Below are positions 23,797 to 40,824 of a stretch of DNA of 64,000 nucleotides, one piece after another. The notes below the pieces were generated by a model. The model searched no databases. It had not been told where the DNA came from and saw only the letters and a list, made by a program, of their open reading frames with translations. This stretch comes from Bacteroidales bacterium (lineage in GTDB: Bacteria > Bacteroidota > Bacteroidia > Bacteroidales > UBA1715). The stretch covers positions 44,884 through 108,883 of the forward strand of contig DAIOSV010000001.1 of NCBI GenBank assembly GCA_036752345.1, given 5' to 3'. The position numbers were made by a program, and so were the translations under genes. Position 1 is the stretch's first letter. Every line of letters begins with the position of its first letter.

Positions 23797-24798
23797 TTAT
23801 TTAACTTCCCAAGTATCGTTGGTCATAAGCAATTCTTCGAAGTTGTGATATTTCTTTTTGCTTGAAACCTCTTCGATTTGTGCATCAACAGCGTCATTGT
23901 AGGTTGGAGCTTCTACATCACGAATTACACCAAGAGCGATAGGGAAGTCGGGGCCTTCCATAAGTGCTAATTTGAATTGTAATGTATTGTCTTCGCTATG
24001 AGCATCATGAACAAGAATGTCTTTTTCTGTAATGCCATTTTCTCCGATTTTGACAACTTTTAATCCAAAACCTTGTTGCATTAAACCGAATTCGCGGTTT
24101 TTACCGAAAATCATAGGTTCGCCATGTTTTAAATAGATAGCATTTTTTGCTCTATCTTCAGGTTTGTTAACGCTTGCGTATGCTCCATCGTTGAATATAA
24201 CGCAGTTTTGCAAAATTTCGCAAACAGAAGATCCTTTGTGTGCATGAGCTGCTTTTAAAACCTCAATAGTTCCGGCAGCATCAGTTGCTACGGCTCTTGC
24301 AAAGAAATGACCTCTTGCTCCAAAACAAAGTTCTGCTGGGCGGAATGGGTCTTCTACCGTTCCGTATGGAGATGATTTGCTCACAAAGCCACGAGGAGAT
24401 GTTGGAGAATATTGTCCTTTGGTCAGACCATAGATTCTATTGTTTAAAAGAATCATGTTGATGTCGATGTTACGACGGTTAGCATGAATAAAGTGGTTAC
24501 CACCAATAGCTAAACCATCACCATCACCAGAGATTTGCCAAACAGAAAGTTTTGGATTTGCAACTTTACATCCGGTAGCAATTGCAGCAGCACGGCCGTG
24601 AATAGTATTCATGCCATATGTTGCCATATAGTGAGGTAAACGGCTAGAGCAACCAATACCTGATATTACAGAGGTATCTTGTGGTGCAACGCCTATTTCT
24701 GCCATGGCTTTTTGAAGTGAAGCCAAAAAGAAGTGGTCTCCACATCCCGGACACCAACGTGGTTGTCCTTTCTTAAAATCTTTTGCTGTATATTCCAT
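23797..24798 (-). CDS. korB: 2-oxoglutarate (2-oxoacid):ferredoxin oxidoreductase beta subunit
   Basis: 333 aa. WCPGCGDH, TPP-binding GDGDGLAIGGNHF...NN.IYGLTKGQ. Confidence 0.92.
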   Translation of the reverse strand: MEYTAKDFKKGQPRWCPGCGDHFFLASLQKAMAEIGVAPQDTSVISGIGCSSRLPHYMATYGMNTIHGRAAAIATGCKVANPKLSVWQISGDGDGLAIGGNHFIHANRRNIDINMILLNNRIYGLTKGQYSPTSPRGFVSKSSPYGTVEDPFRPAELCFGARGHFFARAVATDAAGTIEVLKAAHAHKGSSVCEILQNCVIFNDGAYASVNKPEDRAKNAIYLKHGEPMIFGKNREFGLMQQGFGLKVVKIGENGITEKDILVHDAHSEDNTLQFKLALMEGPDFPIALGVIRDVEAPTYNDAVDAQIEEVSSKKKYHNFEELLMTNDTWEVK

Positions 24799-24815
24799 GA
24801 TAATTTTCTCCTTTT

Positions 24816-26663
24816 TTATTTGTTATAAATGTTGTTGAACGCTTCAACCAATTCGTTTACTACAAATGGTTGCCCTTTTACTTCGTTGAATTGGTATGGA
24901 ACGAAGTTGTCAACTTTCATGCGTAACCAACCTGCAAATTGACCAAGGTTTTGTTCTGCAACTACAACTTTCTTGTATTTCTTTAGAACTGCTTCGGTGT
25001 TTTTTGGAAGTGGGTTGATGTATTTAAAATGAGCCAAGGCTACTTTTCTGCCAGCAGCTTTCATTTCGTTCATTGCTGCATGAAGGTGTCCGTATGTTCC
25101 GCCAAAACCAACTATAAGTAATTCGGCAGTATCAACATCACCTAAAACTTCAACGTCTGGAACTTCAATCTTATTGATTTTTTCTTGACGAAGACGAGTC
25201 ATAAGGTTGTGGTTTTCAGGATTCGTAGAAATAGCACCGGTTTTGTTGTCTTTTTCAAGACCACCCAAAATATGTGTAAATCCTTCTGTTCCAGGGATTG
25301 CCCAATAGCGAGAACCTTCAGCATTTCTTTGATATGGAGTCCAAGTTCCTTTCATATCAGAAGTAACGAATGGAGGTTTAATTTCAGGAAATTCAGCCAT
25401 TTTTGGTAATTTCCAAGCTGAAGAACCGTTTGCTACGTATGCGTCTGTCATAAGAACGACTGGAGTCATGTGTTCCAATGCAATTTTTGATGCCATGTAA
25501 GCAGCGTCAAAACAATCAGTTGGCGATGTGGCAGCAATTACCGGCATAGGTGATTCGCCATTTCTTCCGAATAATACTTGCAACAAGTCGGTTTGCTCTG
25601 ACTTTGTAGGAAGTCCGGTAGCCGGTCCTCCACGTTGTACGTCAATTACAACAAGTGGCAATTCCATGATTACCGCAAGGTTCATTGCTTCTGATTTCAA
25701 GCAAATACCAGGACCTGATGTGGAAGTACAAGCTAAAGCACCTGCAAAAGACGCTCCAACAGCTGAAGAACAGCCAGCAATTTCGTCTTCGCATTGAACT
25801 GTTTTAACACCCAATGATTTGTGTTTTGACAATTCATGTAAAATATCGGTAGCTGGAGTAATAGGGTATGAGCCGAGATATAGTTGTAATCCTGCTTTTT
25901 CTGCAGCAGCAATAAGACCATATGAGGTAGCTTTGTTACCCGTAATGTCCATGTAGCGACCGTTTATCTTATTTTTAGTCTCAATTCTGTAGACATTTGC
26001 AACAGAACTGTGGGTATTGTGACCAAAATCGTAGCCTGCTTGAAGCACTTTGATGTTAGCATCAGCAATTTCCGGTTTTTTGGCAAATTTTTCTTGTAAG
26101 TAATTGATAGCAATGTTTAAATCACGGTCAAACAACCAACAAACTAAACCAAGGGCAAACATATTTCTACATTTGAGCATTGATTTAAAGTCCATACCGC
26201 TATCTTTCAAAGCATCTTTTACCATTGTGGTCAAAGGACACGCAATTACTTGGTCAGGGTCAATTCCCATTTCACCAAGATAATCTTCAGTAGCGAATTC
26301 TGCTTTCTTTAAATCGCTTTCTTGGTAACTATCAGTGTCAATAATAATTGCAGCACCTTTTTTAGCATATTTATATTGCGTTTTAAGTGCAGCAGCATTC
26401 ATTGCTACAAGTACGTCGCACTTGTCTCCCGGAGTATATACTTTATCTGCTCCAATGTGAACTTGGAAGCCAGATACACCTGTTAAAGAACCCTGCGGAG
26501 CACGAATGTCAGCCGGATAATCAGGAAACGTACTAATACTATTTCCGACAGTGGCAGAAACGGTAGAGAATATGTTTCCTGCTAACTGCATTCCGTCGCC
26601 GGAATCACCCGAAAAACGTACGATAATGTCGTTTACTTCGGTTATCTTTTTTGAATCACTCAT
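24816..26663 (-). CDS. korA: 2-oxoglutarate (2-oxoacid):ferredoxin oxidoreductase alpha subunit (fused gamma-alpha type)
   Basis: 615 aa. The N-terminal gamma-like domain (GDSGDGMQLAG) is followed by alpha domains (GSYPITPATDI, SGPG). It lies 17 nt upstream of korB. Confidence 0.92.
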   Translation of the reverse strand: MSDSKKITEVNDIIVRFSGDSGDGMQLAGNIFSTVSATVGNSISTFPDYPADIRAPQGSLTGVSGFQVHIGADKVYTPGDKCDVLVAMNAAALKTQYKYAKKGAAIIIDTDSYQESDLKKAEFATEDYLGEMGIDPDQVIACPLTTMVKDALKDSGMDFKSMLKCRNMFALGLVCWLFDRDLNIAINYLQEKFAKKPEIADANIKVLQAGYDFGHNTHSSVANVYRIETKNKINGRYMDITGNKATSYGLIAAAEKAGLQLYLGSYPITPATDILHELSKHKSLGVKTVQCEDEIAGCSSAVGASFAGALACTSTSGPGICLKSEAMNLAVIMELPLVVIDVQRGGPATGLPTKSEQTDLLQVLFGRNGESPMPVIAATSPTDCFDAAYMASKIALEHMTPVVLMTDAYVANGSSAWKLPKMAEFPEIKPPFVTSDMKGTWTPYQRNAEGSRYWAIPGTEGFTHILGGLEKDNKTGAISTNPENHNLMTRLRQEKINKIEVPDVEVLGDVDTAELLIVGFGGTYGHLHAAMNEMKAAGRKVALAHFKYINPLPKNTEAVLKKYKKVVVAEQNLGQFAGWLRMKVDNFVPYQFNEVKGQPFVVNELVEAFNNIYNK

Positions 26664-27964: not shown

Positions 27965-28097
27965 GCAGAAAATCTTTATAAATACAAATGTATAAAAGTT
28001 TTTTGGTTTCTTTTATGTAAGAAAGAAGCCGAATGTGAAAAACGTCATGCGTGTATGTATTTTTTATATTTTTGCTTTGTGTGTAAGAAATATAAAT

Positions 28098-29564
28098 ATG
28101 AAAAAAATTTTTCTCGGTCTGTGTCTTCTTTTTTCTCAGTGCATGATTGCACAAGAAGCATCGCAGGCTCCATCTATTAGAACAATGTTTCCAGGCGATT
28201 ATCCCGATCCCAGCCTGTTGGTCGATGGTAAAGATTACTACATTGTGCATTCATCGTTTGAATATTATCCGGGATTAACAATATGGCATTCCAACGATTT
28301 GAAACATTGGTCGCCGGTACAAAGTCCGCTACGAACATACGTTGGCTCGGTTTGGGCTCCCGATTTTGTAAAGTATAAGGGCAAATATTATATCTATTTT
28401 CCTGCTGGTACGTCTAATTATGTGATTTGGGCAGATTCTGTTAATGGAAAATGGTCGGAACCGATTGATTTGCAGATAGGTGGCATAGACCCCGGGCATG
28501 TGGTTGATGCAAAGGGTAATCGGTATTTATATTTCAGTAACGGCGGATATACAAAACTCAGCAAAGACGGGCTCCATACCGAAGGAAACTACATTCATGT
28601 GTATGATGGTTGGGAAATTCCTCGTGAATGGTCAATAGAGTGTTTTTGCATGGAAGGGCCTAAATTGACGAAAAATGGCGAGTATTATTATCTCACAGTG
28701 GCAGAAGGCGGCACTGCCGGACCGGCAACGGGACACATGGTTGTTTCGGCTCGCTCAAAATCACCTCTTGGATCATGGGAAAACTCTCCGTACAATCCCT
28801 TGCTTCGTGCCAAAACACCTAACGAACAATGGTGTTCTACGGGGCATGCAACCATTTTTGAGGACAATAATCACCAATGGTGGATGCTGTTTCATGCCTA
28901 CGAAAACGGCTATTACAATATGGGACGACAAACGTTGATTGCTCCCATAGAATGGACTTCTGATGGTTGGTGGAAAGTTCCCGAAAATGCCAAATTTGTT
29001 TCTCAAGAAGCGGAATGTGCGTTTAATTTGAGCGATAATTTTGAAGGGAATACGCTTCGTCCACATTGGCGTTTTTGGAAAGAATTTGAAGAATCTCGCT
29101 ATACGGTGGCACATAATTCTCTCACGCTTAAAGGAAAAGGGACCGATGTGGTTTCTAGTTGCCCGTTGCTGTGTATGCCGCAAAATCATTCATATTCGGT
29201 GCAAGTGGAGATGGAAATTTCTGGTGATGCCATTGGTGGTTTGCTGTTGTATTATAGCCCGAAAATCTATTCCGGTATTATGGCCGATTCTACGAATGTG
29301 TTGGCAAACCTTCGTGGTTGGCAATTCCCAACGGAAAAGAATGTGCATCACAATCATGTGTTTCTTAAGTTGATAAACAACAAACATTTGGTAGATATGT
29401 ATTATAGTCTTGATGGGAATAATTGGACTAAGTTGGCAAATTCGTTTGATGTAGAGGCGTATCATCACAATGTGTTAGGAGAATTTCTTGCTTTACGTAT
29501 TGGGTTGGTTTCCATAGGAAAAGGAACCGTGACGTTTAAAAATTTTGTATATAAATCGTTATAA
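28098..29564 (+). CDS. Glycoside hydrolase family 43 (beta-xylosidase/alpha-L-arabinofuranosidase type) with a C-terminal beta-sandwich domain
   Basis: Start moved to the ATG at 28098 (MKKIFLGLCLLFSQCMIAQE signal). FPGDYPDPSLL..GKDYYIV.SSF...PGL.IWHS.DL.HW, VWAPD and CMEGP GH43 catalytic blocks. The last ~170 aa are concanavalin-like. Confidence 0.88.
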   Translation: MKKIFLGLCLLFSQCMIAQEASQAPSIRTMFPGDYPDPSLLVDGKDYYIVHSSFEYYPGLTIWHSNDLKHWSPVQSPLRTYVGSVWAPDFVKYKGKYYIYFPAGTSNYVIWADSVNGKWSEPIDLQIGGIDPGHVVDAKGNRYLYFSNGGYTKLSKDGLHTEGNYIHVYDGWEIPREWSIECFCMEGPKLTKNGEYYYLTVAEGGTAGPATGHMVVSARSKSPLGSWENSPYNPLLRAKTPNEQWCSTGHATIFEDNNHQWWMLFHAYENGYYNMGRQTLIAPIEWTSDGWWKVPENAKFVSQEAECAFNLSDNFEGNTLRPHWRFWKEFEESRYTVAHNSLTLKGKGTDVVSSCPLLCMPQNHSYSVQVEMEISGDAIGGLLLYYSPKIYSGIMADSTNVLANLRGWQFPTEKNVHHNHVFLKLINNKHLVDMYYSLDGNNWTKLANSFDVEAYHHNVLGEFLALRIGLVSIGKGTVTFKNFVYKSL

Positions 29565-29575
29565 GATTTCTGGGT

Positions 29576-31201
29576 ATGAATTATGAAGTAAAATTTAGAA
29601 ATAATGTTGTAGAGATGCAAAATTTTCCGTCTCTACGGTGCATCGTTTTATTGTTTATGTTTTGTATCGTTGCCTCGGAATCGTTTTCACAAGGAAAAAT
29701 TAAGGCAAGCAAGAAGTATTACAAGGGCTTGAATGAAGCGAATCCAATCTCATCAAACAGATTTTGTGCCGACCCAACGGCGGTGGAATATGAAGGGCGC
29801 TTGTATGTGTATGGTACCAGCGATCATGAACAATATGAGGCGGTATGGGTGAAAGGCAAAAACACCTACGATAAAATAAAGTCTCTTGAGATTTTTTCAA
29901 CCAACGATATGGTGAATTGGACGTATCACGGAGTTATCAATGTAAAGGAAGTGGCTCCATGGATTATCAATTCGTGGGCACCATCTATTGTTTCTCGTAA
30001 GGAAGCAGATGGGTTGACGCATTTCTATTTATATTTCTCAAACAACGGAACCGGTGTTGGCGTAATTACTGCCACATCTCCAACTGGTCCGTGGAGTGAT
30101 CCTCTCGGTGCACCTCTTATCCTGTCGGGCATGTCTAAAGTAGAAGGCGTTCCCAATCCATTCGATCCGGGAGTTTGCATAGATGATAAAGGAGTCGGAT
30201 ATCTTGCGTTTGGTGGTGGTGTTGCAAAAAATGGCACTGATGCTTTGCCTCGTACCGCAAGAATCGCACGCTTGGGAAAAGATATGATTTCACTCGATAC
30301 CGTTGTGGAAATCAAAGCACCATATTTTTTTGAAGCAAGTGAGTTGAATTTTGTAAATGGCACATTTATATATACTTACAATAATAATTGGGTATCGCGC
30401 GAAGAGTGGGATTTTAGTATCGCACCCCAACCGTCGCAATGTAGTATGTCGTATATGACAACGACCACACCTTTGGAAACAGATAGTTGGAAATATCGTG
30501 GACATTATTTGCAAAATCCTGGAGATTTAGGACTGTTTTATAGTAACAATCACACGCATTTTCAGAAATACAATGGCAAGTATTACTTATGTTACCATAC
30601 CTTACTTTTGCATGGAGCAATGATGCCGCAAGGCAGTGAGTTGGCATTCCGTAGTCTTTGTGTGAACGAAATGAAAATAGATGAAAATACGCAAAAAATA
30701 GCTATGGTAAAAGCCGACAAACAAGGTGTAAAACCGACTACAATACATACCACCTCCGAACAATATTGGGGGGCAACAATGTTTACCTCCGCAGAAATGG
30801 CATTTGAGCCTGATAGCTCAATGGGGGTGAAAAATTCGTTGAGTGTAATTTCAAGTAGTCAAAATGGTGGTCCTAAAAGTCTTGAACAATTTCACCCATA
30901 CATGGTGTCAAAAAGTACAGCAGCGGGAGCGTGGCAAAGTATTAAAAATGTAGATGTTCAATCAGGCACGTTGTACATTAAAGCTAGTGGCAAAGGAACG
31001 ATAAAGATATGCTTGGATAGTCCAAAGGCAAAACCAGTGGCAACAATTACGTTGGATTCTGGCAATACGACGTTCGATACATTGGGTGGCGAGTCTGTAA
31101 AAGTGAAAGTTAAGAAACCGGGAGTTCATACGGTATATTTCGTATTTTCAGAACCAAATATGTGTTTGCATTCATGGTGTTGGAACAATATTAGTTTATG
31201 A
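29576..31201 (+). CDS. Glycoside hydrolase family 43 with a C-terminal CBM6-like module
   Basis: 541 aa. CADPTAVEYEGRLYVYGTSD, SWAPSIV and FFEASEL blocks. The C-terminal ~130 aa (GAWQSIKNVDV...IKICLDS...GVHTVYFVF) look like CBM6. An alternative start at Met14 (29615) gives a tidier signal peptide. Confidence 0.85.
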   Translation: MNYEVKFRNNVVEMQNFPSLRCIVLLFMFCIVASESFSQGKIKASKKYYKGLNEANPISSNRFCADPTAVEYEGRLYVYGTSDHEQYEAVWVKGKNTYDKIKSLEIFSTNDMVNWTYHGVINVKEVAPWIINSWAPSIVSRKEADGLTHFYLYFSNNGTGVGVITATSPTGPWSDPLGAPLILSGMSKVEGVPNPFDPGVCIDDKGVGYLAFGGGVAKNGTDALPRTARIARLGKDMISLDTVVEIKAPYFFEASELNFVNGTFIYTYNNNWVSREEWDFSIAPQPSQCSMSYMTTTTPLETDSWKYRGHYLQNPGDLGLFYSNNHTHFQKYNGKYYLCYHTLLLHGAMMPQGSELAFRSLCVNEMKIDENTQKIAMVKADKQGVKPTTIHTTSEQYWGATMFTSAEMAFEPDSSMGVKNSLSVISSSQNGGPKSLEQFHPYMVSKSTAAGAWQSIKNVDVQSGTLYIKASGKGTIKICLDSPKAKPVATITLDSGNTTFDTLGGESVKVKVKKPGVHTVYFVFSEPNMCLHSWCWNNISL

Positions 31202-31266
31202 TTTATGTAGAGGTGCGATAGTATTATTGTGCAAACAATTTGCAAAGCGTTAACAAATAGATAGTT

Positions 31267-32160
31267 ATGATATACACAATAGGGGAAACGGTAGTCGATC
31301 TGATATTTAAAACCATGCAACCGCAGGCTGCCAAGGTTGGAGGTTCGGCCTTAAATACTTCAGTAAGTTTAGGACGATTGGGCGATGATGTGAGCTATAT
31401 TTCAGAGGTGGGAGACGATGATTTAGGTAATTGGTGTATTGATTTCTTGAACCAAAATCATGTCGGCACACAGTATATAATCAGGCACAAAGACAAAAAA
31501 ACCTCGTTGGCTCTTGCGTTTTTGAATGAGCGCAATGATGCACAGTACAGTTTTTACAAAGAATTCAGCGATGTTATGTCTTCGGTTACGATACCAACTA
31601 ATTCTACTGATATTCTCCTATTTTCATCGTCTTTTTCGCTAAACGAACGTGTCCACTCTTGCTTGACTAGTGTACTTCAACGAATGCGCAAAAACGATGC
31701 GCTTGTCGTGTATGATCCTAATATGCGAAGAGCCATTTCTAATGATTCGACGGAGTATTCGTTTTTACAAGAAAATTTACGGTTTGCCGACATAGTTCGT
31801 CTGTCAGATGAGGATGCACAGGCTATCTTTGGTACAAATGATGTTTCGTTGGTGTATCAAGAGTTGGCAAAATATGATGTTCATGTGCTTATATATACCC
31901 AAAATAGCAAAGACGTTATTGTAAAAACTCCATTATTCACCAAGTCGTATTCTGTCCCTCAAGTAGCCGTTATTAGTACCATTGGGGCGGGTGATACCTT
32001 TAATGCGGGCATTTTGCATTGTGTTAAAAATCACGGTGTTACGTGTTCGTTAGTTAAAACACTTCCAGAGTCATTTTATGATGAGGCAATTCCTTTTGCC
32101 ATTGCATGTTCTGGAGAGGTTTGTGGATTATTGGATAATTACATTTTACCTCGCCACTAA
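31267..32160 (+). CDS. PfkB-family sugar kinase (fructokinase-like)
   Basis: 297 aa. GG.A.N....L.RLG N-terminal motif and the C-terminal GAGDTFNAG anion-hole motif. Confidence 0.85.
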   Translation: MIYTIGETVVDLIFKTMQPQAAKVGGSALNTSVSLGRLGDDVSYISEVGDDDLGNWCIDFLNQNHVGTQYIIRHKDKKTSLALAFLNERNDAQYSFYKEFSDVMSSVTIPTNSTDILLFSSSFSLNERVHSCLTSVLQRMRKNDALVVYDPNMRRAISNDSTEYSFLQENLRFADIVRLSDEDAQAIFGTNDVSLVYQELAKYDVHVLIYTQNSKDVIVKTPLFTKSYSVPQVAVISTIGAGDTFNAGILHCVKNHGVTCSLVKTLPESFYDEAIPFAIACSGEVCGLLDNYILPRH

Positions 32161-32220
32161 TTACGTAGGAAAATACACCAATATTTTATGTGAATAGCTT
32201 GTATGTCATGCTATTGGAGA

Positions 32221-32274
32221 CTACGTTTTTATACGTAGATGGAAATTTACGTTTTTTTACTATTGTAAACGTAG
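32221..32274 (+). promoter_or_regulatory. Candidate operator: two ACGT-core inverted repeats upstream of the Hdr-like operon
   Basis: CTACGT-N6-ACGTAG (32221-32238) and TTACGTTT-N12-AAACGTAG (32247-32274). A further TACGTA lies at 32162-32167. Repeat centres are 31 nt apart, and the repeats end 58 nt upstream of the ATG at 32332. Confidence 0.4.
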
Positions 32275-32331
32275 ACAATAAGTCACTCCTTTGTATAGTA
32301 ATAATTATATCAATCTTTGGAGGTCTACAAT

Positions 32332-33033
32332 ATGGATTATGTTGCTGAATTAGAAAAAGACTTGCGGTTCAAAGAAGCTATGCATTCATGCTTAAATTGC
32401 GGAATATGTAGTGCTATTTGTCCGGCTGCAGAGTTTTACAATTATGATCCGCGCATCATAGTAACTACGGTGCAACGCAGAAATAATGCCGAGATAGAAC
32501 AGCTACTCAAATCAAACACTATTTGGTATTGTGGACAATGTATGTCATGCAAAACACGTTGCCCTCGTGGAAACACAGCCGGAATGATAATTCAAGCATT
32601 GCGTATGCTTTCTCAACGATGCGGTTTTTTTACCGAAAGTGAGAAAGGCCGTCAACAATATGCGTTGAAGAAAACCATAGGCGAAAACATATTGAAGTAT
32701 GGCTACTGCGTGCATACGTTGTTGGTAAAGCCGGAATTACATCCTGAACAAGGCGTAATATGGGAATGGGTGTATAAAAATCGTGAAGCCATATATGACA
32801 GACTCGGGGCAAATCTATACAAAGACGGCCCTGGTGCTATGCGCAAAATCAATCAAAAGAACCTCGATGAATTATCTGAGATATTCAAAGTGACCGGCGG
32901 AGAAGAAATGTATGATATAATTGAAAACGATTCGAAGAAAAAAGCCGTTGAAATGCACATGAGTACCGACGATAATAATAATGAGTATTTAATGCATGTG
33001 ATGACATACAATAGTAATCAACATCAAGACTAA
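32332..33033 (+). CDS. HdrC-like 2x[4Fe-4S] protein with a C-terminal extension
   Basis: CLNCGICSAICP and CGQCMSCKTRCPRG motifs spaced as in heterodisulfide reductase subunit C. ATG at 32332 is preferred over the track's TTG at 32317. About 233 aa. Confidence 0.8.
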   Translation: MDYVAELEKDLRFKEAMHSCLNCGICSAICPAAEFYNYDPRIIVTTVQRRNNAEIEQLLKSNTIWYCGQCMSCKTRCPRGNTAGMIIQALRMLSQRCGFFTESEKGRQQYALKKTIGENILKYGYCVHTLLVKPELHPEQGVIWEWVYKNREAIYDRLGANLYKDGPGAMRKINQKNLDELSEIFKVTGGEEMYDIIENDSKKKAVEMHMSTDDNNNEYLMHVMTYNSNQHQD

Positions 33034-33038
33034 GAGGT

Positions 33039-34106
33039 ATGAATATAGAAGGAAAAAAACAAATTTGGAGTTCGTATCAAAAAGAGATAGCCGACAATGA
33101 TTATTACTACGCACGGAGTTGTATTCGTCAGAATTTTTTCCCTGCTTCAGAAGTTACCTTTTTGCGCATATTGCGTGAAGAATTGGGCAAAAATATCTTT
33201 GACGACCCCAACCATACAACATGTAGTGGTATAGGATATCATTCCGACATAGTGCCTTTTGATACAATTCAAACCGTCGTTGCTCGTCATTTTTCATTGA
33301 TGACAGAGGCTGGTCTTAAAAATATCGCAATTTCATGTGTTACGTCGTTTGGTATTTATACTGAAATACTTGATTTGTGGCAACATTTTCCCGAACAATT
33401 GGAAAAAATTCGAGAGTATTTGTACAAAGCTACAAAACGCGAATTTAATGTTCCCAAAAATATTGCTCACGCCAGCGATGTAATTTACAAATTTCGTAAT
33501 GAAATAGCAGAAAAAGCAAAATACAAATTAGTAAATGCAAAAACAGGAGAACCTTTAAATATAGTAGAACACATTGGTTGTCACTATGCTAAAATGTTTC
33601 CAACCAAAGGTGTTGGTGGAGCAGAATTCCCTCAAGTTTTGAATGGAATGATAGAATCGTGGGGCGGTAATGTAGTTGATTACCCTGAACGTCGCCACTG
33701 TTGTGGCTTTGGATTTAGACAATATTTAGTACAAGCCAATCGTGGCTATTCTGTTTCAAATACCAAGAAAAAATTGGAATCAATGAAACCCTATAAGCCT
33801 GACTTTATCGTTACAAACTGTCCGGGTTGTGCTATGTTTATGGATAAATGGCAATACACAATTGCCGAAATGGAAGGCGCAACATATGGGCAAGAAGGAT
33901 GTGGAATCCCCGTGCTGACATACGAAGAAATGGCAGGCTTGGTACTTGGCTACAATCCATGGGATTTGGGGTTGCAAATGCACCAAGTTCAATGTGAATC
34001 AGTATTAGATAAATTGGGAGTTGAGTATGATCCAAAAGCAAAATATTTAGATAAAAATGGCAATCAGATGCCTCTTCCTGAAAAACCAGTTAATTTATTG
34101 CAATAA
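33039..34106 (+). CDS. HdrB-like CCG-domain protein
   Basis: 355 aa. One intact Cys-rich CCG domain (RRHCCGFG...NCPGCAMF) and one degenerate N-terminal copy (TCSGIG...ISCVTSF). 5-nt gap from the previous gene. Confidence 0.8.
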   Translation: MNIEGKKQIWSSYQKEIADNDYYYARSCIRQNFFPASEVTFLRILREELGKNIFDDPNHTTCSGIGYHSDIVPFDTIQTVVARHFSLMTEAGLKNIAISCVTSFGIYTEILDLWQHFPEQLEKIREYLYKATKREFNVPKNIAHASDVIYKFRNEIAEKAKYKLVNAKTGEPLNIVEHIGCHYAKMFPTKGVGGAEFPQVLNGMIESWGGNVVDYPERRHCCGFGFRQYLVQANRGYSVSNTKKKLESMKPYKPDFIVTNCPGCAMFMDKWQYTIAEMEGATYGQEGCGIPVLTYEEMAGLVLGYNPWDLGLQMHQVQCESVLDKLGVEYDPKAKYLDKNGNQMPLPEKPVNLLQ

Positions 34107-34108
34107 CA

Positions 34109-35140
34109 ATGATAGACGTATTGATAATAGGCGGCGGAATTGCAGGTATAGAAACAGCATGTTCTCTGCAAGATTTAGGCTTTGAAACAGTCATAGTCGA
34201 AAAAGAAAAAAACATAGGTGGCCATTTGAACGATTGGGACACGTTATTTCCGACACATCGTCCCGCATCGGAAGTGTTGGCGCACTATACCGACGAAACC
34301 CGCAAACGTGCTCTTACGATTTATTTAAACACATATGTAATCTCAATAAAACGGCAAGATGACGGTGTTTTTGTGATACTCACGTCTCGTGATGTGGTTT
34401 TTCATAGTAAAACCGTGGTACTTGCTTCAGGCTACAATTTGTTTAACGCCACACGTAAGGAAGAGTACGGGTACAAAATCTACGATAATGTAATAACTTC
34501 TGCCGATTTGGAAATTCAGTTGAAGCAATTGAATGGAGAATACAAAACTCCTACAGGCAAAGTGCCACAAAAAATTGCGTTCATTCACTGTGTAGGTTCT
34601 CGTGATGAAAAATCGGGCAATCATTATTGCTCAAAATTATGTTGCGTGACAGCCGTAAAACAAGCTATTCATATGCGAAAACTTTGTCCGCAAGCTGAAA
34701 TATATTGTTGTTACATGGATTTGCGTATGTACGGACCCGGTTTTGAAGAAATGTATCGCGAAGCACAAGAAAAACATTCTGTACAATTTATTCGCGGCCG
34801 TTTGTCTGAAGTTGGGGAAAATACAGATGGCTCATTACAGTTGAAAGTAGAAGACACATTGGCAGCTCGTCCAAGCCGTTTACAAGTGGATTTGCTCGTA
34901 TTGATGGTCGGCATGGAATCGGCAAAAAGCACCGAATTGTTTGCGCAATCGTGTGGATTGCAATGTGCGCCAAGTCGTTTTGTGCAACCGCGCGACATTC
35001 ATATTGCATCAAATTTAACCAACGTAGATGGTTTGTTTACCGCAGGAACAAGCATGGCTCCTATGTCGGTTTACGATACGGTTAATCATGCAAAAGCTGC
35101 TGCGTTTGCTGTTCGTGATTATTTAAACAACAAAAAATAA
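34109..35140 (+). CDS. HdrA-like FAD-dependent oxidoreductase (short form, no ferredoxin inserts)
   Basis: 343 aa. VLIIGGGIAGIETA dinucleotide fold and the HdrA-type cluster motif CVGSRDEKSGNHYCSKLCC. 2-nt gap upstream, TAATG overlap downstream. Confidence 0.8.
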   Translation: MIDVLIIGGGIAGIETACSLQDLGFETVIVEKEKNIGGHLNDWDTLFPTHRPASEVLAHYTDETRKRALTIYLNTYVISIKRQDDGVFVILTSRDVVFHSKTVVLASGYNLFNATRKEEYGYKIYDNVITSADLEIQLKQLNGEYKTPTGKVPQKIAFIHCVGSRDEKSGNHYCSKLCCVTAVKQAIHMRKLCPQAEIYCCYMDLRMYGPGFEEMYREAQEKHSVQFIRGRLSEVGENTDGSLQLKVEDTLAARPSRLQVDLLVLMVGMESAKSTELFAQSCGLQCAPSRFVQPRDIHIASNLTNVDGLFTAGTSMAPMSVYDTVNHAKAAAFAVRDYLNNKK

Positions 35141-35487
35141 TGAGAGATTTCGGTTACACTACCACAAAATCGAGAACGATTGACTATGACAAAATAGACA
35201 CTCGTCTGATTTCGTATGTGCTTGAAAACGAACCGACATTTAATGCGTGTATGTCTTGTGGTTCATGTACCGCTATTTGTAGTGCCGGAAACTTGACTCC
35301 ATTTAACATACGAAAACTGAGTTTGCAAATTCGTCTTGGCGATTATTCCAATGCGCACGAGGAACTTGATAAATGCATGTTGTGTGGAAAATGTTTGCTT
35401 GAATGTCCGCGAGGCATCAATACACGCAATGTTATTATGTTGATGAAGAAAGGGTTGACGTTGTTCAACATTAAAGACAAAGAATAA
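35140..35487 (+). CDS. Small HdrC-like 2x[4Fe-4S] ferredoxin-domain protein
   Basis: 115 aa. CMSCGSCTAIC and CMLCGKCLLECPRG. TAATG overlaps at both ends (35138-42, 35485-89). Confidence 0.8.
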   Translation: MRDFGYTTTKSRTIDYDKIDTRLISYVLENEPTFNACMSCGSCTAICSAGNLTPFNIRKLSLQIRLGDYSNAHEELDKCMLCGKCLLECPRGINTRNVIMLMKKGLTLFNIKDKE

Positions 35488-37262
35488 TGGAAGACTATTT
35501 CGTATTGCCGTTTACGCTTGGAGCTATAATCCTATTTGCAATTTTACTTGTAAAATATGGATTGTGGATAGCAAAATTGTCGCATCGAGATAAATTGAGA
35601 ATTGTGCAAAGTTTTCTCACTCGACGCACGTTTGCCGCTATTAAAGATAGTATAATGGAAGGCTTGCTACACCGCAGCGTGTTTAAACGCAATGTGTTGT
35701 TGGGCTACATGCACATGAGTTTGGCATTTGGTTGGTTTTTATTAATAGTAGTGGGTCATATTGAAGTTGTGGTGCGTTACGGCTCATTGGTTGCCCCACC
35801 TTGGGAAGTCATATTTTTTCCATATTTTCATCATGAAACATTTCCGGGAGAACCTTTCATGACCAACTTGATGGACTTCTTGCTTTTGTTTGTTTTATCG
35901 GGCGTTTTGCTTGCCTATTTTAAACGAATTAACAGTAAAATTTTCGGCATCAAGAAAACAACAAAACTCAAACCCGGCGATCGATTTGCCTTGATATCAC
36001 TGTGGGGAATATTTCCTTTCCGTTTGCTCGCCGAAGGAGCAACCGCAGCGTTGTATGGCAATGGCGGTTTTTTGACCAATTCTGTTGGACATTTCTTTAC
36101 GTGGATTAATGTAACGCCAGTTATGGAAAGTGTGCTTTGGTGGGCATATTCTATTTCTCTAGGCGTATTTTTCGTATGCATGCCATTTTCTCGATATATG
36201 CACATTTTTACCGAGATTTTGTTCATCTTCTTGCGTCACTATGGTATTAAATTAAAAAAAGATTTCAACTCTTATTCAAGAATCCAGGTATATTCATGTT
36301 CTCGTTGCGGTATTTGTATTGACGTCTGCCAAATGCACGTTGCCAATATTTCAAACAACCAATCGGTGTACATCTTAAAAAATATTCGCGACCAAAATTT
36401 AACAGACCGAAAGCTCTATAACTGTTTGCTCTGCGGACGTTGTGAAAATGTGTGTCCTGTAGGAATTAACCTAAACGATTTGCGTATTTCTCAACGTATT
36501 AAAGCTACCAAAGAATTCAATTCGAATTATGAATTCTTAAATACGTTGCCCGTTGAAACGAGAGAGGTGAATACCAAGCCGGAAGTGATTTTCTTTGCCG
36601 GTTGTATGACGCATATGACACCGGGAATTAAAAAATCAATTTTGACGGTATTAGATAAAGCAGGAGTCAATTACCAATTTATGGATAAAGACAAAGGAGC
36701 TTGTTGCGGACGACCGTTAATGTTGGCAGGACAATACCAAGCTGCCAAAAAATTGATAGCATACAATCGTGAGAAAATTCTAGAATCAGGCGCACCAATA
36801 CTTTTAGTTTCATGCCCAATATGTTACAAGGTATTCCGTGACGATTATGAATTAGGACAAATTTCCATTAAACATCATTCTGAATATTTTCTTGAATTGG
36901 TGCAACAAGGTAAGATTTCGTTGAAAAAATCAAGCCAATCTATCGTTTATCACGACCCGTGCGAGTTGGGTAGAGGTTGTGGCGTGTACGAACCGCCAAG
37001 AGATTTGTTGCGTATGGCAGGCACATTGCAAACAACACGACAAGAAAAAGTTAATTCCTTGTGTTGTAGTGGTTCCTTAGGCGATTTGAGCCTTTCTATG
37101 GAAGATAGAAATGTGATAAAAGCAGAAACTCTCAAAGTGTTGTTGCAACAGAATACCGACATTTTGGCGACAGCTTGTCCGTTGTGTAAAAAGACTTTTG
37201 TGAAAGGTGTTGACATTCAGGTGAAAGATATCGCTGAAATAGTAGCAGAGGCCTTGGTTTAA
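35487..37262 (+). CDS. Membrane-anchored Fe-S/CCG oxidoreductase (HdrE/DsrM/NarI-like anchor fused to an HdrD/DsrK/GlpC-like domain)
   Basis: 591 aa. About 5-6 hydrophobic helices in the first 250 aa with conserved-looking His (YMHMSLAFGWFLLIVVGHIE; SRYMHIF). These are followed by CSRCGICIDVC and CLLCGRCENVCPVG, then two CCG domains (GACCGRP...SCPICY; SLCCSGS...ACPLCK). Confidence 0.8.
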   Translation: MEDYFVLPFTLGAIILFAILLVKYGLWIAKLSHRDKLRIVQSFLTRRTFAAIKDSIMEGLLHRSVFKRNVLLGYMHMSLAFGWFLLIVVGHIEVVVRYGSLVAPPWEVIFFPYFHHETFPGEPFMTNLMDFLLLFVLSGVLLAYFKRINSKIFGIKKTTKLKPGDRFALISLWGIFPFRLLAEGATAALYGNGGFLTNSVGHFFTWINVTPVMESVLWWAYSISLGVFFVCMPFSRYMHIFTEILFIFLRHYGIKLKKDFNSYSRIQVYSCSRCGICIDVCQMHVANISNNQSVYILKNIRDQNLTDRKLYNCLLCGRCENVCPVGINLNDLRISQRIKATKEFNSNYEFLNTLPVETREVNTKPEVIFFAGCMTHMTPGIKKSILTVLDKAGVNYQFMDKDKGACCGRPLMLAGQYQAAKKLIAYNREKILESGAPILLVSCPICYKVFRDDYELGQISIKHHSEYFLELVQQGKISLKKSSQSIVYHDPCELGRGCGVYEPPRDLLRMAGTLQTTRQEKVNSLCCSGSLGDLSLSMEDRNVIKAETLKVLLQQNTDILATACPLCKKTFVKGVDIQVKDIAEIVAEALV

Positions 37263-37452
37263 GGTATGTGCTATGGTTTATAAAATCTTATTTTGAAACC
37301 TTACAATTCTCTACAAGAACCTTTTTACGGCACAATACAAGGTTCTTAACTCTGTTAGTATCTTTTTAAAAATTTCTTGAAAGATTGGCTAAAATCCAAT
37401 CTACAATTAAAGATTATTTTGCAAATTTGTCGCACAAAAATTTAAGATACAA

Positions 37453-38520
37453 ATGAAGAAACATAATTTCAATGCAGGACCGTCCATATTGCCACGCGAA
37501 GTTATAGAAGAGACAGCAAAGGCTGTACTTGACTTCCAGAATGATGGACTTTCACTTTTAGAGATTAGCCATAGAGCTAAGAACTTTCAACCCGTAGTTG
37601 AAGAGGCTGTCTCGTTGTTTAAAGAACTTTTGGACATTCCTGAAGGATACTCCGTGATCTTCCTAGGCGGTGGAGCAAGTTTGGAATTTTGTATGATTCC
37701 ATTTAACTTTTTAGAGAAAAAAGCTGCGTATTTGAACACAGGTGTGTGGGCAAAGAAAGCTATGAAAGAAGCAAAACTTTTTGGAGAAGTTGTAGAAGTA
37801 GCATCGTCAGCTGACGCAAACTACACTTTCATTCCTAAAAATTATACAATTCCAACTGATGCTGATTATTTCCACATCACAACAAACAACACAATCTATG
37901 GAACAGAAATCCTAAAAGATATGGATTCTCCAGTGCCTTTGATTGCTGATATGTCATCAGATATTTTCTCTCGTCCATTGGATGTTTCTAAATATGGTGT
38001 AATCTATGGTGGTGCTCAAAAGAACTTGGCTCCTGCCGGTGTTACATTCGTTGTTATTAAAGACGAATTGTTAGGCAAAGTTTCTCGTCAAATCCCAACT
38101 ATGCTTGACTATCGTACACATATCAAAGAAAATTCATTATTCAATACTCCTCCTGTATTGCCTATCTATTCAGCATTACTAAATTTACGTTTGGTAAAAG
38201 CTCAAGGTGGTGTTAAAGCAATGGAAAAACGCAATATTGCAAAAGCAAACTTATTGTACGATGCAATCGATTCTAGCAAAGTGTTCGTAGGAACAGCAAA
38301 AGAAGAAGATCGTTCAAGAATGAATATCTGCTTTGTAATGAAAGAAGAATACAAAGAAAAAGAAGCTGATTTCATGGCACTTGCTCAAGCAAGAGGAATG
38401 GTTGGAGTTAAAGGTCACCGTTCAGTTGGTGGTTTCCGCGCTTCTTGCTACAATGCCCTTCCTATAGAAAGCGTACAAGCGTTGGTCGACACAATGAAGG
38501 AATTTGAAAGAACAATCTAA
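37453..38520 (+). CDS. serC: Phosphoserine aminotransferase
   Basis: 355 aa. HNFNAGPS start, the [16 protein letters not shown]-lysine block and [14 protein letters not shown] near the C-terminus. Confidence 0.95.
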
Positions 38521-38533
38521 TTTTTGTATAACA

Positions 38534-38570
38534 AAAACGGAGAAATTGAAAATTTTCTCCGTTTTAATTT
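38534..38570 (+). terminator. Intrinsic terminator/attenuator hairpin between serC and serA
   Basis: 12-bp stem AAAACGGAGAAA / TTTCTCCGTTTT (38534-38565) with an 8-nt loop, followed by TTTTAATTTT. It lies inside the 5' extension of track ORF 38524.., which argues for the serA ATG at 38578. Confidence 0.7.
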
Positions 38571-38577
38571 TATAGAC

Positions 38578-39498
38578 ATGCCAAAAGTACTCGTTGCTAC
38601 AGAAAAACCTTTTGCAAAAGTTGCAATTGAAGGTATTAAAGAAATTATTGAAAAAGCACAATTCTCATGTGAGTTGTTGGAATCATATACAGAGAAATCT
38701 GCATTATTGAAAGCCGTTGCTGATGTTGATGCTATTATCATAAGAAGTGATAATATCGATCAAGAAGTATTTGATGCTGCAAAAAATTTAAAAATTGTTG
38801 TTCGTGCCGGTGCCGGTTACGACAATGTTGATTTAGCTGCTGCTACTGCAAAAAATGTAGTAGTAATGAATACTCCGGGACAAAACGCTAACGCCGTTGC
38901 AGAATTAGTATTCGGTATGTTGGTGTACGGTGTACGTAACTTCTTCAATGGCAAATCAGGTTCTGAATTGTTAGGCAAAAAACTTGGTATTCTTGCGTTC
39001 GGAAACGTTGGTCGCAACGTTGCTCGTATAGCGAAAGGATTTGGAATGGAAGTTTATGCATACGATGCATACTGTCCAGCTTCTGTTATTGAAGCTGCTG
39101 GTGTTAAAGCCGTTGCAAATCAAAACGAATTATTCAAAACATGTGATGTAGTTTCTTTGCACATACCTGCAACTCCAGAAACTGTTAACAGCATCAACTA
39201 CGACATGGTTAACCAAATGAAGAAAGGCGGTATCCTAATTAATACCGCTCGTAAAGAGGTTATCGATGAAGCTGGTTTGATTAAGTTAATGAACGAACGT
39301 GCTGATATCAAATACATCACAGACATTATGCCTGCTGCAAATGATGAATTTGCTAAATTAGAAGGACGTTATTTCACAACTCCTAAGAAAATGGGTGCTC
39401 AAACATCTGAAGCAAACATCAACGCAGGTTTAGCTGCTGCTCGTCAAATAGTTTCTTTCATAACTACAGGCGACAAAAAATTCCAAGTAAATAAATAG
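38578..39498 (+). CDS. serA: D-3-phosphoglycerate dehydrogenase (short, ~306-aa type)
   Basis: Start moved to MPKVLVATEKPF. 2-hydroxyacid dehydrogenase motifs VRAGAGYDNVD, GILAFGNVGRNVA and HIPAT. Adjacent to serC. Confidence 0.9.
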   Translation: MPKVLVATEKPFAKVAIEGIKEIIEKAQFSCELLESYTEKSALLKAVADVDAIIIRSDNIDQEVFDAAKNLKIVVRAGAGYDNVDLAAATAKNVVVMNTPGQNANAVAELVFGMLVYGVRNFFNGKSGSELLGKKLGILAFGNVGRNVARIAKGFGMEVYAYDAYCPASVIEAAGVKAVANQNELFKTCDVVSLHIPATPETVNSINYDMVNQMKKGGILINTARKEVIDEAGLIKLMNERADIKYITDIMPAANDEFAKLEGRYFTTPKKMGAQTSEANINAGLAAARQIVSFITTGDKKFQVNK

Positions 39499-39516
39499 TT
39501 TATCAACAATAAGTAG

Positions 39517-39557
39517 TTGGCTATTGAGAGAGTAATCCCGCAATAGCCAATTCTTTT
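39517..39557 (+). terminator. Intrinsic terminator after serA
   Basis: 10-bp stem TTGGCTATTG / CAATAGCCAA with a 14-nt loop, then TTCTTTT. The same stem sequence recurs at 48994-49035. Confidence 0.65.
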
Positions 39558-39573
39558 ATAAAAAGTTAGCAAT

Positions 39574-40824
39574 ATGCCAGTAGTAAAACCATTTAAAGGT
39601 TTCCGTCCTCGTACCGAAGAGCTTGCAAAGAAAATTGCATCTCGTCCCTATGATGTGTTAAATTCACAGGAAGCAAAAGTAGAAGCAGGAGATAATGAGT
39701 ATTCTTTTTATCATGTAATAAAACCAGAAATAGATTTACCAGCCGACATTGATGTGCACTCACAAGTTGTGTATGATAAGGCTAAAGAAAGTCTAAACAA
39801 AATGATAGCAGACAAGGTTTTGATACAAGATGGGAAGCCATGTTATTACATATACGCTCAAACCATGAATGGACGTACTCAATACGGTATTGTTGGTGGA
39901 GCATGTGTTGCTGATTATGAAAATAACATCATAAAGAAACACGAACTTACTCGTCCAGACAAAGAAGAAGATCGTAGAAATCATGTACGAAATACCAATT
40001 TCAATGCTGAACCGGTATTCTTCGCATTCAAAAACAACCTTGAGTTGGATATGATTATTCACGACGCTATTTTGATTGACCCGGTTTACAATTTCGTGTC
40101 TGAAGACGGCGTAGGTCACCACGTTTGGGTGATTGAAAACGATGCAAAAATTAAACGTATTGAATATCTTTTCGCAAACGAAGTTGATTGTTTGTATGTA
40201 GCCGATGGTCACCACCGTACAGCTGCTGCTGCCGGAGTAGGAGCAGAACGTCGTGCAGCAAACGCAAATCACACTGGAAATGAGGAATATAATTATTTCT
40301 TGGCAGTAAACTTCCCTGCAAATCAGTTGTCTATCATTGATTACAACCGTGTGTTGAAAGATTTGAACGGCATGAGCGTAGATGAATTACTTGCGAAATT
40401 GTCAAAAAGTTTTGACGTTGAGAAAAAAGGCGCAACAATCTACAAACCAAATACGTTGCACAATTTCTCATTGTACGTTGCAGGTGAATGGTATTCATTA
40501 ACTGCAAAACAAGGTACATTCAACGATTCAGACCCAATTGGTGTACTCGATGTAACTATCTTGACCGAACAAGTACTTTCTCCGTTATTCGATATTCAAG
40601 ACTTGCGCAGAAGCAATCGTATTGATTTCGTAGGTGGTATTCGTGGTCTTGGAGAATTGAAAAAACGTGTTGATAGTGGCGAAATGGCTGCTGCCTTTGC
40701 GTTGTATCCAGTTTCTATGGAACAATTGATGGCAATTGCTGATAGTGGCGAAATAATGCCTCCAAAATCAACCTGGTTCGAACCAAAATTACGTAGTGGA
40801 TTAATTTTACACAGCTTAGTGTAG
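39574..40824 (+). CDS. DUF1015 family protein
   Basis: 416 aa. F.G.RP start, the YVADGHHRTAAA block, and length and position next to serA as I recall for Bacteroides DUF1015 proteins. Confidence 0.75.
   Translation: MPVVKPFKGFRPRTEELAKKIASRPYDVLNSQEAKVEAGDNEYSFYHVIKPEIDLPADIDVHSQVVYDKAKESLNKMIADKVLIQDGKPCYYIYAQTMNGRTQYGIVGGACVADYENNIIKKHELTRPDKEEDRRNHVRNTNFNAEPVFFAFKNNLELDMIIHDAILIDPVYNFVSEDGVGHHVWVIENDAKIKRIEYLFANEVDCLYVADGHHRTAAAAGVGAERRAANANHTGNEEYNYFLAVNFPANQLSIIDYNRVLKDLNGMSVDELLAKLSKSFDVEKKGATIYKPNTLHNFSLYVAGEWYSLTAKQGTFNDSDPIGVLDVTILTEQVLSPLFDIQDLRRSNRIDFVGGIRGLGELKKRVDSGEMAAAFALYPVSMEQLMAIADSGEIMPPKSTWFEPKLRSGLILHSLV

Follow-up and report, generated by a model that had tools for sequence, protein, structure and literature searches.

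A Bacteroidota operon that appears to join an sHdr-like HdrC1-B1-A core to a candidate menaquinone-linked membrane module

The sHdr clusters of sulfur oxidisers are known in two layouts: type I, shdrC1B1AHC2B2, in Hyphomicrobium denitrificans and Aquifex, and type II, shdrC1B1AHB3-etfAB-emo, which contains the EMO protein proposed to pass electrons to menaquinone. Membrane proteins that also bear on the operon are the ETF:(methyl)menaquinone oxidoreductases EMO/EtfD (Syntrophus aciditrophicus; Mycobacterium smegmatis, PDB 9OJN), whose published structures trace a wire from non-cubane clusters through two cubanes and haem b to menaquinone and which are homologous to the HdrDE of Methanosarcina. 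Here we analyse five plus-strand open reading frames (ORFs), g1 to g5, at positions 32317-37262 of a 64,000-nt stretch of DNA from a Bacteroidales bacterium (GCA_036752345.1, contig DAIOSV010000001.1), hereafter the window. A sequence-only reading had described these genes as an HdrA/B/C-like operon ending in a fusion of a membrane anchor with an HdrD-type domain. Our comparisons suggest that the operon is a Bacteroidota variant of the known sHdr-like family, and an apparently undescribed one; literature searches on Hdr and sHdr in Bacteroidota returned no description of the cluster, a prior listing in Appel et al. 2021 being possible. The genes and their domains are as follows.

32317 to 33033, plus strand: g1, an HdrC1-like protein with two predicted [4Fe-4S] clusters (Pfam Fer4_8; NCBIfam HdrC far below its cut-off).
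33039 to 34106, plus strand: g2, a B1-type HdrB-like subunit with a putative catalytic site (full-length HdrB match; one Pfam CCG domain).
34109 to 35140, plus strand: g3, a short HdrA-like flavoprotein predicted to bind FAD and one [4Fe-4S] cluster (FAD Rossmann fold in Pfam).
35140 to 35487, plus strand: g4, a 115-aa protein with two predicted [4Fe-4S] clusters and eight invariant cysteines, the likely partner of g5.
35487 to 36260, plus strand: membrane domain of g5, five transmembrane (TM) helices of the NarI/HdrE/EMO type (AlphaFold2 model, conserved histidines).
36288 to 36467, plus strand: HdrC-like domain of g5 with two predicted [4Fe-4S] clusters (Pfam Fer4_8 and Fer4_7; cysteines invariant).
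36585 to 37196, plus strand: non-cubane-cluster domain of g5 with two full CCG motifs (two Pfam CCG matches).

The packing of the genes is as the sequence-only reading had it, with a 5-nt gap between g1 and g2 (TAA-GAGGT-ATG), a 2-nt gap between g2 and g3 (TAA-CA-ATG) and TAATG overlaps at 35138-35142 and 35485-35489, and because of these gaps and overlaps the five genes are almost certainly co-transcribed and translationally coupled. The first gene probably begins at ATG 32332 instead of TTG 32317, since 30 of 65 orthologues begin at that residue. A g5-based scan of one genome per species yielded at least 581 confirmed candidate stretches, of which we compared the best 80, all from Bacteroidota: Bacteroidales metagenome-assembled genomes (MAGs) from rumen, gut and digester, Prolixibacteraceae, and Marinilabilia, Mariniphaga, Maribellus, Draconibacterium and Saccharicrinis. 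Wherever the locus was long enough to hold the complete set, tblastn recovered the same g1-g5 order (65 of 65), at protein identities of 42-74% and with unconserved flanks. The most conserved subunit was g2, at 63-74% identity versus 42-57% for the other four. Clustering of 1113 flanking ORFs from the 80 loci left g1-g5 as the only recurrent genes, and the flanks found in the window (sugar kinase, serC and serA) were kept only in one 95%-identical locus, L001. Since the order persists at this divergence in 65 loci and the flanks do not, the association of the five genes exceeds chance. All predicted metal ligands were invariant or nearly so in 61-79 orthologues.

The two cysteine motifs read earlier in each of the small Fe-S proteins are present and invariant, at C25/28/31/35 and C72/75/78/82 in g1 and at C37/40/43/47 and C79/82/85/89 in g4; C131 and H142 of g1 are likewise invariant. 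Pfam recognised di-cluster ferredoxin domains in g1, g4 and g5, and the CCG and Fer4 families turned up where they had been predicted. Over its cluster region g1 is 41% identical to sHdrC1, and against a reference sHdr locus (L081: DsrE3, sHdrC1, B1, A, H, C2, B2, LbpA, TusA) it prefers sHdrC1 over C2 by 86 versus 42 bits. The flavoprotein g3, 343 aa long, carries GGGIAG and the invariant C161, C174, C178 and C179; its residues 3-334 align to residues 3-335 of the Hyphomicrobium denitrificans sHdrA (PDB 6TJR, E 5e-48), and its match to the sHdrA of the reference locus is full length at 167 bits. An FAD fold, an HdrA-type cluster motif and the lack of ferredoxin inserts had all been recognised correctly, and only the spacing had not: the motif reads CVGSRD-x7-CSKLCC, with seven residues in place of eight.

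Methanogenic HdrABC is related to all three of these soluble subunits, with g2 resembling a full-length HdrB, g1 the cluster part of HdrC and g3 the thioredoxin-reductase-like core of HdrA with its [4Fe-4S] motif. The C-terminal 236 residues of g3 are 42% identical to methanogen HdrA, of which g3 matches only residues of about 147-201 and 322-562, whereas the N-terminal, inserted and C-terminal ferredoxin domains are missing; NCBIfam searches and PDB alignments found none of them in g3. Two of the ten cysteines of HdrB are missing from g2, and the operon has no Mvh or Fdh partner. In NCBIfam the top ranks were HdrC for g1, HdrB for g2 and HdrA/HdrA2 for g3, all 3-6 fold under the curated cut-offs (69 vs 350, 141 vs 450 and 208-249 vs 1100-1400 bits, respectively). 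The place of an NAD(P)H-binding motif in g3 is taken by the cysteine cluster motif. Flavin-based bifurcation is not supported by this predicted domain content, and the bifurcating role that had been carried over from HdrA does not automatically extend to g3, which has the short, insert-less form of 6TJR. The Hyphomicrobium sHdrA was itself reportedly judged unlikely to bifurcate, by Ernst et al. in 2021.

A further tie to sHdr is the subunit g2. It matches HdrB over its full length (PDB 9sfi_C, E 1.5e-29), and its proximal five-cysteine non-cubane site, HCCGFG...CPGC (C181, C221, C222, C261 and C264, all invariant), is complete, as had been seen from the letters. The distal copy had been described as decayed; it instead keeps three cysteines, C28, C62 and C100, that are invariant in 64-65 of 65 orthologues, and it reads C62-S63 and C100-V-T-S103 where canonical HdrB has CC and CxxC, with serine replacing the second cysteine of the CC pair and the bridging cysteine. 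The resulting pattern, C..C[ST]..CxTS[FY]G with CCG[FM]GFR, is common to g2, sHdrB1 and a few relatives (P0241, P0247, P0250, P0267, P0281, P0283, P0288 and P0383), the remaining relatives being canonical; an exhaustive HMMER search with g2 returned no more than 62 cluster representatives below 1e-30. For both non-cubane clusters of HdrB, the EtfD paper describes a catalytic iron to which a bridging cysteine (Cys81, Cys234) stays bound until substrate displaces it. Because S103 replaces the equivalent of Cys81, the distal cluster of g2 would have a permanently open iron.

Against the reference locus g2 prefers sHdrB1 over B2 (112 vs 48 bits), and C1, B1 and A of that locus are the best reciprocal partners of g1, g2 and g3. 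In a neighbour-joining tree of HdrB-type proteins g2 joins cyanobacterial and archaeal B1 proteins in a clade with the sHdrB1 clade of the sulfur oxidisers as its sister group; the cyanobacterial B2 proteins group with sHdrB2, and canonical HdrB stands elsewhere. The subunit differs from sHdrB1 in lacking the 90-aa N-terminal extension and in having a complete proximal CxxC. With the gene order C1-B1-A, a short insert-less HdrA, two HdrC-like proteins and the B1 motifs in common, g1-g2-g3 can be assigned, by homology, to the C1-B1-A core of the sHdr-like family. The duplicated HdrC and modified HdrB, which had been thought unusual, are instead defining traits of this C1-B1-A(-C2-B2) family, and some of the mechanism can accordingly be taken from sHdr, though a lipoate carrier is absent; the earlier view had been that substrate and direction could not be borrowed from known systems.

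The closest outgroup to the operon is a soluble sister cluster, C1-B1-A-C2-B2, found in loci L087, L088, L090 and L092 and also, together with a membrane module, in L093. Its proteins share 41-48% identity with g1, g2 and g3 over their full length, g1 being 42-48% identical to the cyanobacterial and archaeal C1 proteins over 200 aa and P0250 46% identical to g2; the annotated sources of the relatives of P0250 are Phormidium, Planktothrix and Candidatus Altiarchaeales. The sister clusters, from Planktothrix, Phormidium, Cyanobacterium sp. DS4 and Altiarchaeales-type archaea, share with the operon the order C1-B1-A and the B1 motifs, but their second arm consists of a soluble C2 (166-236 aa) and B2 (233-288 aa), and they have no membrane protein except in L093. 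Genome papers mention their hdr genes only in passing. The neighbourhoods of these clusters vary: L088 lies among PAS signalling genes, L090 beside nif and ferredoxin genes and L092 beside ferredoxin genes, and a Phormidium locus, L086 (10001-12403), has a lone B1 homologue without C1 or A that adjoins a Photo_RC (D1/D2-type) gene. In L087 (526-9138) the hdr cluster directly follows genes for an SQR-like flavoprotein, for a persulfide-dioxygenase-like protein in which a metallo-beta-lactamase fold is fused to rhodanese, for a further rhodanese that has a YgaP-type TM anchor, for the sulfite exporter TauE and for a protein of 155 aa; no LbpA is present.

The locus L093 (4552-11511), on a metagenomic contig of 39% GC, links the two kinds of cluster. 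Its eight genes run C1-B1-A-ferredoxin (83 aa)-110 aa-632 aa-C2-B2, and its B1 shares 80% identity with a protein cluster that bears the name Candidatus Altiarchaeales. The 110-aa protein matches g4 at 48% identity; the 632-aa protein matches g5 at 38% over 628 residues (E 2.5e-150) and keeps its histidines and cysteines. Because both stand there beside a full C1-B1-A-C2-B2 set, g4 and g5 form a separable two-gene membrane unit, one that can join an already complete soluble complex. Bacteroidota keep this unit without C2-B2, and the operon, with gaps of 5, 2, -1 and -1 nt, has no space for sHdrH, C2 or B2. Derivation of the module from the soluble arm was considered and rejected. A truncated C2 is no explanation for g4, as its orthologue coexists with a full C2 in L093, and g4 shares no more than 27-30% identity with the cyanobacterial C2, which it does not resemble in length; between g5 and B2 there is no significant similarity.

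In g5 the ferredoxin and CCG motifs claimed earlier were both recovered. The cubane ligands are C271/274/277/281 and C313/316/319/323, and the CCG ligands are C373, C406, C407, C443 and C446, followed by C492, C526, C527, C564 and C567, all ten invariant, in motifs that read ACCGRP..CPIC and LCCSGS..CPLC. An AlphaFold2 model (mean pLDDT 79.5) resolves the five to six TM helices estimated from sequence to five; the TM part has a pLDDT of 82-95, the CCG domain is well predicted and the cubane domain is of low confidence. Pfam gave no match to the membrane domain. The best sequence and fold match for the whole chain is EtfD of M. smegmatis, both in phmmer against PDB sequences (9ojn_A, E 7e-18) and in Foldseek (9OJN, E 5e-19), where LutA and HdrB rank next for the CCG part. 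Three histidines, H62, H76 and H239, are nearly invariant (78-79 of 79), and H91 is kept in 75 of 79. On the cytoplasmic side, H76, at the inner end of TM2, and H239, after TM5, are positioned like the proximal-haem ligands H87 and H251 of SaEMO. On the outer side of TM2 lies H91, which could be the distal haem ligand; no conserved histidine was found on the outer half of TM5.

The non-cubane clusters of EMO and EtfD are relays, not catalysts, and since g5 shares their architecture and ferredoxin genes adjoin the soluble relatives in L090 and L092, the operon might encode a pure electron-transfer complex, a ferredoxin (or other protein donor):menaquinone oxidoreductase with its CCG clusters as relays. 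The ligands of g5 argue otherwise. Its distal motif has CC where EtfD has Cys538-Thr539, and its CxxC motif reads CPIC where EtfD has C-P-His583-C, so that the plug residues of relay-type enzymes are missing; with the CC, the CPIC, the ten invariant cysteines and no EtfD histidine plug, g5 is by its ligands HdrD-like and not relay-type. A relay also leaves aside that g2 is the most conserved subunit and shares its predicted open-iron, B1-type site with the catalytic sHdrB1, and that g3 offers no NAD(P)H-binding motif, and we regard it as very unlikely. Beyond the ligands, g5 differs from EMO/EtfD in being shorter, in lacking a disordered tail, in having its own 115-aa ferredoxin-like partner and in having no etfAB nearby; none of the 80 loci has etfAB within 10 kb. 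By its ligand signature and for want of ETF, g5 does not qualify as an EMO/EtfD.

The same ligands bring g5 close to Methanosarcina HdrDE, with which it would share a five-helix haem b-type domain, two cubanes and two full five-cysteine motifs, and so raise the possibility of a menaquinol- and/or ferredoxin-dependent disulfide reductase, much as the sequence-only reading had it, in which g5 acts as an HdrDE, a disulfide of low molecular weight or of a protein is reduced at its ten-cysteine site, and the FAD of g3 confurcates or bifurcates among the quinone, g1-g2 and ferredoxin. In support of such an enzyme, g5 keeps the ten HDR-type cysteines without the histidine plug and the Cys-to-Thr change of EtfD, in an architecture that equals that of HdrDE, and the identity of g3 to methanogen HdrA spans the flavin/cluster core. 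Against it, g3 lacks the ferredoxin-type domains that bear the low-potential branch of bifurcating HdrA, no thiol-cofactor or thioredoxin-like gene is conserved near the operon in the 80 loci, and the scheme leaves unexplained why g2, and not g5, is the most conserved subunit. Menaquinol, at about -75 mV, moreover cannot reduce common disulfides without an extra driving force. We consider a disulfide reductase of this kind unlikely, though with appreciable probability. The resemblance to HdrDE has other bounds as well: g5 is a single polypeptide embedded in an HdrC1B1A-like operon, the sequence similarity is at the level of domains only, no metabolism of coenzyme M (CoM) or coenzyme B (CoB) is evident, and the partner would be menaquinone and not methanophenazine. 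Bacteroidota use menaquinone, and to our knowledge they do not make CoM or CoB. Menaquinone is most likely what g5 links the complex to, and the combination of a soluble HdrABC-like with a membrane HdrE/HdrD-type module proposed from the sequence alone gains support from these comparisons, as does menaquinone as its most likely partner.

Assignment to an already characterised CCG system (LutABC, GlpABC, GlcDEF, type-E Sdh/TfrAB, QmoABC or Flx-Hdr) is extremely unlikely. The CCG domain of g5 is LutA-like in fold, and weak NCBIfam matches link g5 to TfrB (114 bits), LdhH (101), GlpC (83) and GlcF (44), g2 to SdhE (46) and g1 to QmoC (43); DsrK, too, is among the top ranks for g5, with TfrB, LdhH and GlpC. 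All of these scores lie several-fold below the curated cut-offs, however, the partner genes are missing, and the best full-length relatives are of Hdr type. These systems and DsrMK were rejected on the profile scores and the missing partners: neither the window nor the 80 loci contained LutB/C, GlpA/B, GlcD/E, SdhA/B, AprAB or Flx genes, and the neighbour census contained no Dsr genes. The lack of CoM/CoB, Dsr and Apr/Qmo genes stated earlier for the surroundings extends from the window to the 80 loci, and Lut, Glp and Glc genes are missing from both as well. Placement in LutABC, GlpABC, SdhE or GlcF, a lack of co-conservation and a loss of cluster ligands had been named as grounds for abandoning the Hdr-like interpretation, and none of them was found.

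The explanation that we favour, with roughly even confidence, is that the products of the operon form a single Fe-S flavoprotein complex bound to the membrane. It would be the Bacteroidota version of the sHdr-like HdrC1-B1-A family, with g4 and g5 in place of the C2-B2 arm. It is not a member of sHdr proper, as sHdrH, C2-B2, LbpA and the sulfur transferases are missing. The operon likewise has no B3, EtfAB, lipoate ligase or LipS, its subunits are only 26-41% identical to those of sHdr, and its hosts are fermentative or facultative Bacteroidota and not known sulfur oxidisers. As a member of neither sHdr nor EMO/EtfD, the complex may be said to work like these systems rather than to be one of them.

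Evidence on the physiological role also comes from the DNA upstream of g1, where the following elements were found.

32222 to 32237, no strand assigned: putative 7-2-7 palindromic operator TACGTTT-TT-ATACGTA, of the pattern TACGT-N6-ACGTA, conserved upstream of the operon.
32248 to 32252, no strand assigned: a third TACGT box, which follows the palindrome after about 10 nt.
32162 to 32167 and 32269 to 32273, no strand assigned: extra TACGTA/ACGTA half-sites, making five ACGT-core boxes within 115 nt.

The palindrome occurs once in the window, against 0.04 expected. Exact TACGT-N6-ACGTA was present in 19 copies in 18 of the fetched loci, 18 of the 19 lying immediately upstream of the first operon gene, in carriers that include rumen Bacteroidales, Mariniphaga, Maribellus, Draconibacterium and Marinilabilia; the three-box arrangement is kept in the upstream regions of rumen Bacteroidales, Mariniphaga and Maribellus. 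A 7-2-7 layout of heptamers is typical of NarL-family response regulators, and in 13-14 loci, which represent three lineages or more, a HisKA_3 kinase with a GerE/NarL-type regulator flanks the operon. In five loci (L018, L031, L036, L040 and L043) a gene for a 137-aa cysteine-rich protein was also observed about 140 nt upstream of g1 (for example L036:587-1000); the protein has several CxxC pairs and only weak zinc-ribbon matches, and in four or more of the five its gene separates the response regulator from the operon, the regulator match in L036 being partial at a contig edge. Neither the operator nor the two-component system had been noticed in the sequence-only reading, nor had the phosphate-type transporters that apparently share the operator.

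These transporters are of several kinds. In L083/84 and L085 the operon opens, behind the operator, with a gene for a PiT/PHO4 permease, and a PiT gene also adjoins the two-component system in L061 and L080; the sole NCBIfam match of the permease is the CysP sulfate-permease model, at 220 bits and below cut-off. The nineteenth operator copy, in L061 (164-3615), precedes an operon of a porin (Alginate_exp family), a PstS-like protein and PstC, and in L062 (5239-10138) a porin-pstSCAB set with a one-mismatch operator follows g5. SulP permeases adjoin the operon in two further loci. Because the same TACGT-N6-ACGTA operator precedes both, these observations suggest that the operon and phosphate-type uptake genes share a regulon. 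The shared operator and the permeases, with the CysP match and the SulP neighbours, also fit a different reading, in which the operon encodes a redox enzyme for a tetrahedral or pyramidal oxyanion (phosphite, arsenate, sulfite or thiosulfate) or is a member of a phosphate-starvation regulon. The oxyanion would be imported by the co-regulated porin, Pst-like ABC system and PiT permease and be oxidised or reduced at g2, with menaquinone as the redox partner. Of roughly 65 lineages, however, only about 6 have linked transporters, both PstC and the PstS-like protein resemble ordinary phosphate components, and in the window no such transporter adjoins the operon. We know of no CCG or non-cubane enzyme that acts on a non-sulfur oxyanion, and consider this reading quite unlikely.

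The Pfam and ORF-cluster census of neighbours brought up the two-component system and the transporters but no other conserved partner, and among the 150 nearest neighbours no family exceeded 5 of 150 (Na/H exchanger, AraC). Rfam gave no riboswitch or leader RNA match over 31000-38000. Scans for sigma-70 promoters and intrinsic terminators did not exceed shuffled sequence, with a tool that does not cover Bacteroidota promoters.

Several findings weigh against an sHdr-like complex with a sulfur substrate, the reading that we nevertheless prefer. In the sHdr literature, genes for the lipoate carrier and for sulfur transferases always accompany sHdr, whereas genes for LbpA, lipoate maturation, TusA, DsrE and rhodanese are absent from the window and from the neighbours of the operon in the 80 loci; tblastn found no LbpA, DsrE3 or sHdrH in the window, and no GCV_H or lipoate genes occur among the neighbours of the 80 loci. 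Overall similarity puts g2 no nearer type I sHdrB1, at 26% identity, than methanogen HdrB, and its placement rests on a rough neighbour-joining tree. The co-regulated transporters are phosphate-like, with a PstC that passes its NCBIfam cut-off and a binding protein whose PDB matches are all to PstS, if weak, and phosphate-type transporters are not predicted by a sulfur role. Finally, the sulfur genes of L087 make it the only one of the five sister loci with C1-B1-A to have such a context; L088, L090, L092 and L093 do not.

The comparisons establish the homologies of the subunits, the conservation of the ligands, the joint conservation of the five genes, the operator and the architecture of g5; we infer the formation of a complex, its electron path, quinone partner, substrate class and direction. 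A small sulfur-containing substrate, most likely a sulfane/persulfide- or thiol-level compound, would be converted at g2, with electrons passing by way of both g1 cubanes to the FAD and [4Fe-4S] clusters of a g3 dimer, and from there through g4 and the cluster chain of g5 to the haem or haems b and menaquinone. Fumarate reductase or cytochrome bd would oxidise the menaquinol again. The ten-cysteine, HDR-type site of g5 may assume the disulfide-handling role of sHdr B2, and the NarL-family two-component system would set expression through the 7-2-7 operator. That the substrate is a sulfur compound is our best guess, held at somewhat less than even confidence because of the homology of g2 to sHdrB1, the sulfur-rich context of L087 and the CysP-like permease. 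The reverse direction, a menaquinol-driven reduction, is nearly as likely. Analogy leaves the direction undecided: in EMO, EtfD and type II sHdr electrons enter the quinone pool, whereas HdrDE takes them from methanophenazine.

Other genes in the window were also considered. A korAB-like two-subunit 2-oxoacid:ferredoxin oxidoreductase on the minus strand (23797-26663) does lie about 6 kb upstream, as had been pointed out, but it is not a conserved neighbour elsewhere, and the ferredoxin link drawn from it is coincidental. Downstream, on the same strand as the operon, are serC (phosphoserine aminotransferase), serA and a DUF1015-like gene (37453-40824), a neighbourhood kept only in L001 and possibly irrelevant to the operon; O-phosphoserine and sulfite give cysteate on a route to Bacteroidota sulfonolipids, a speculative connection. 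As functional partners korAB, serC/serA and the sugar kinase were all rejected, being kept only in L001. Upstream of the sugar kinase, at 28035-31201, are genes for two secreted proteins that are likely polysaccharide-utilisation genes unrelated to the operon, their glycoside-hydrolase family 43 label resting only on the L001 orthologue. Two contigs of one Saccharicrinis MAG (L048 and L056) both carry the locus, and a third assembly (L054) has identical coordinates, which may reflect duplication or assembly redundancy.

The open questions about sHdr concern the disposal of electrons and the role of the B1-type non-cubane site. A B1 core wired to an HdrDE/EMO-type quinone module, with no lipoate carrier, would be a simpler system in which to address both, and cultured carriers are at hand in Marinilabilia salmonicolor, Maribellus, Mariniphaga and Draconibacterium. 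The conserved operator and its two-component system offer an experimental handle on the inducing signal and hence on the substrate. A speculative and rather unlikely extension of our findings is that the complex is a lipoate-independent, menaquinone-coupled enzyme of anaerobic Bacteroidota that interconverts sulfane-level sulfur and sulfite or oxidises an imported oxyanion such as phosphite. If true, it would define a new respiratory or assimilatory pathway under dedicated NarL-type control, shared with PiT and Pst-like uptake, in several hundred species that include abundant rumen and sediment lineages. Bacteroidota of rumen, gut and sediment carry the module widely, and an added entry to or exit from their menaquinone pool would alter models of anaerobic energy metabolism and of sulfur (or oxyanion) turnover.

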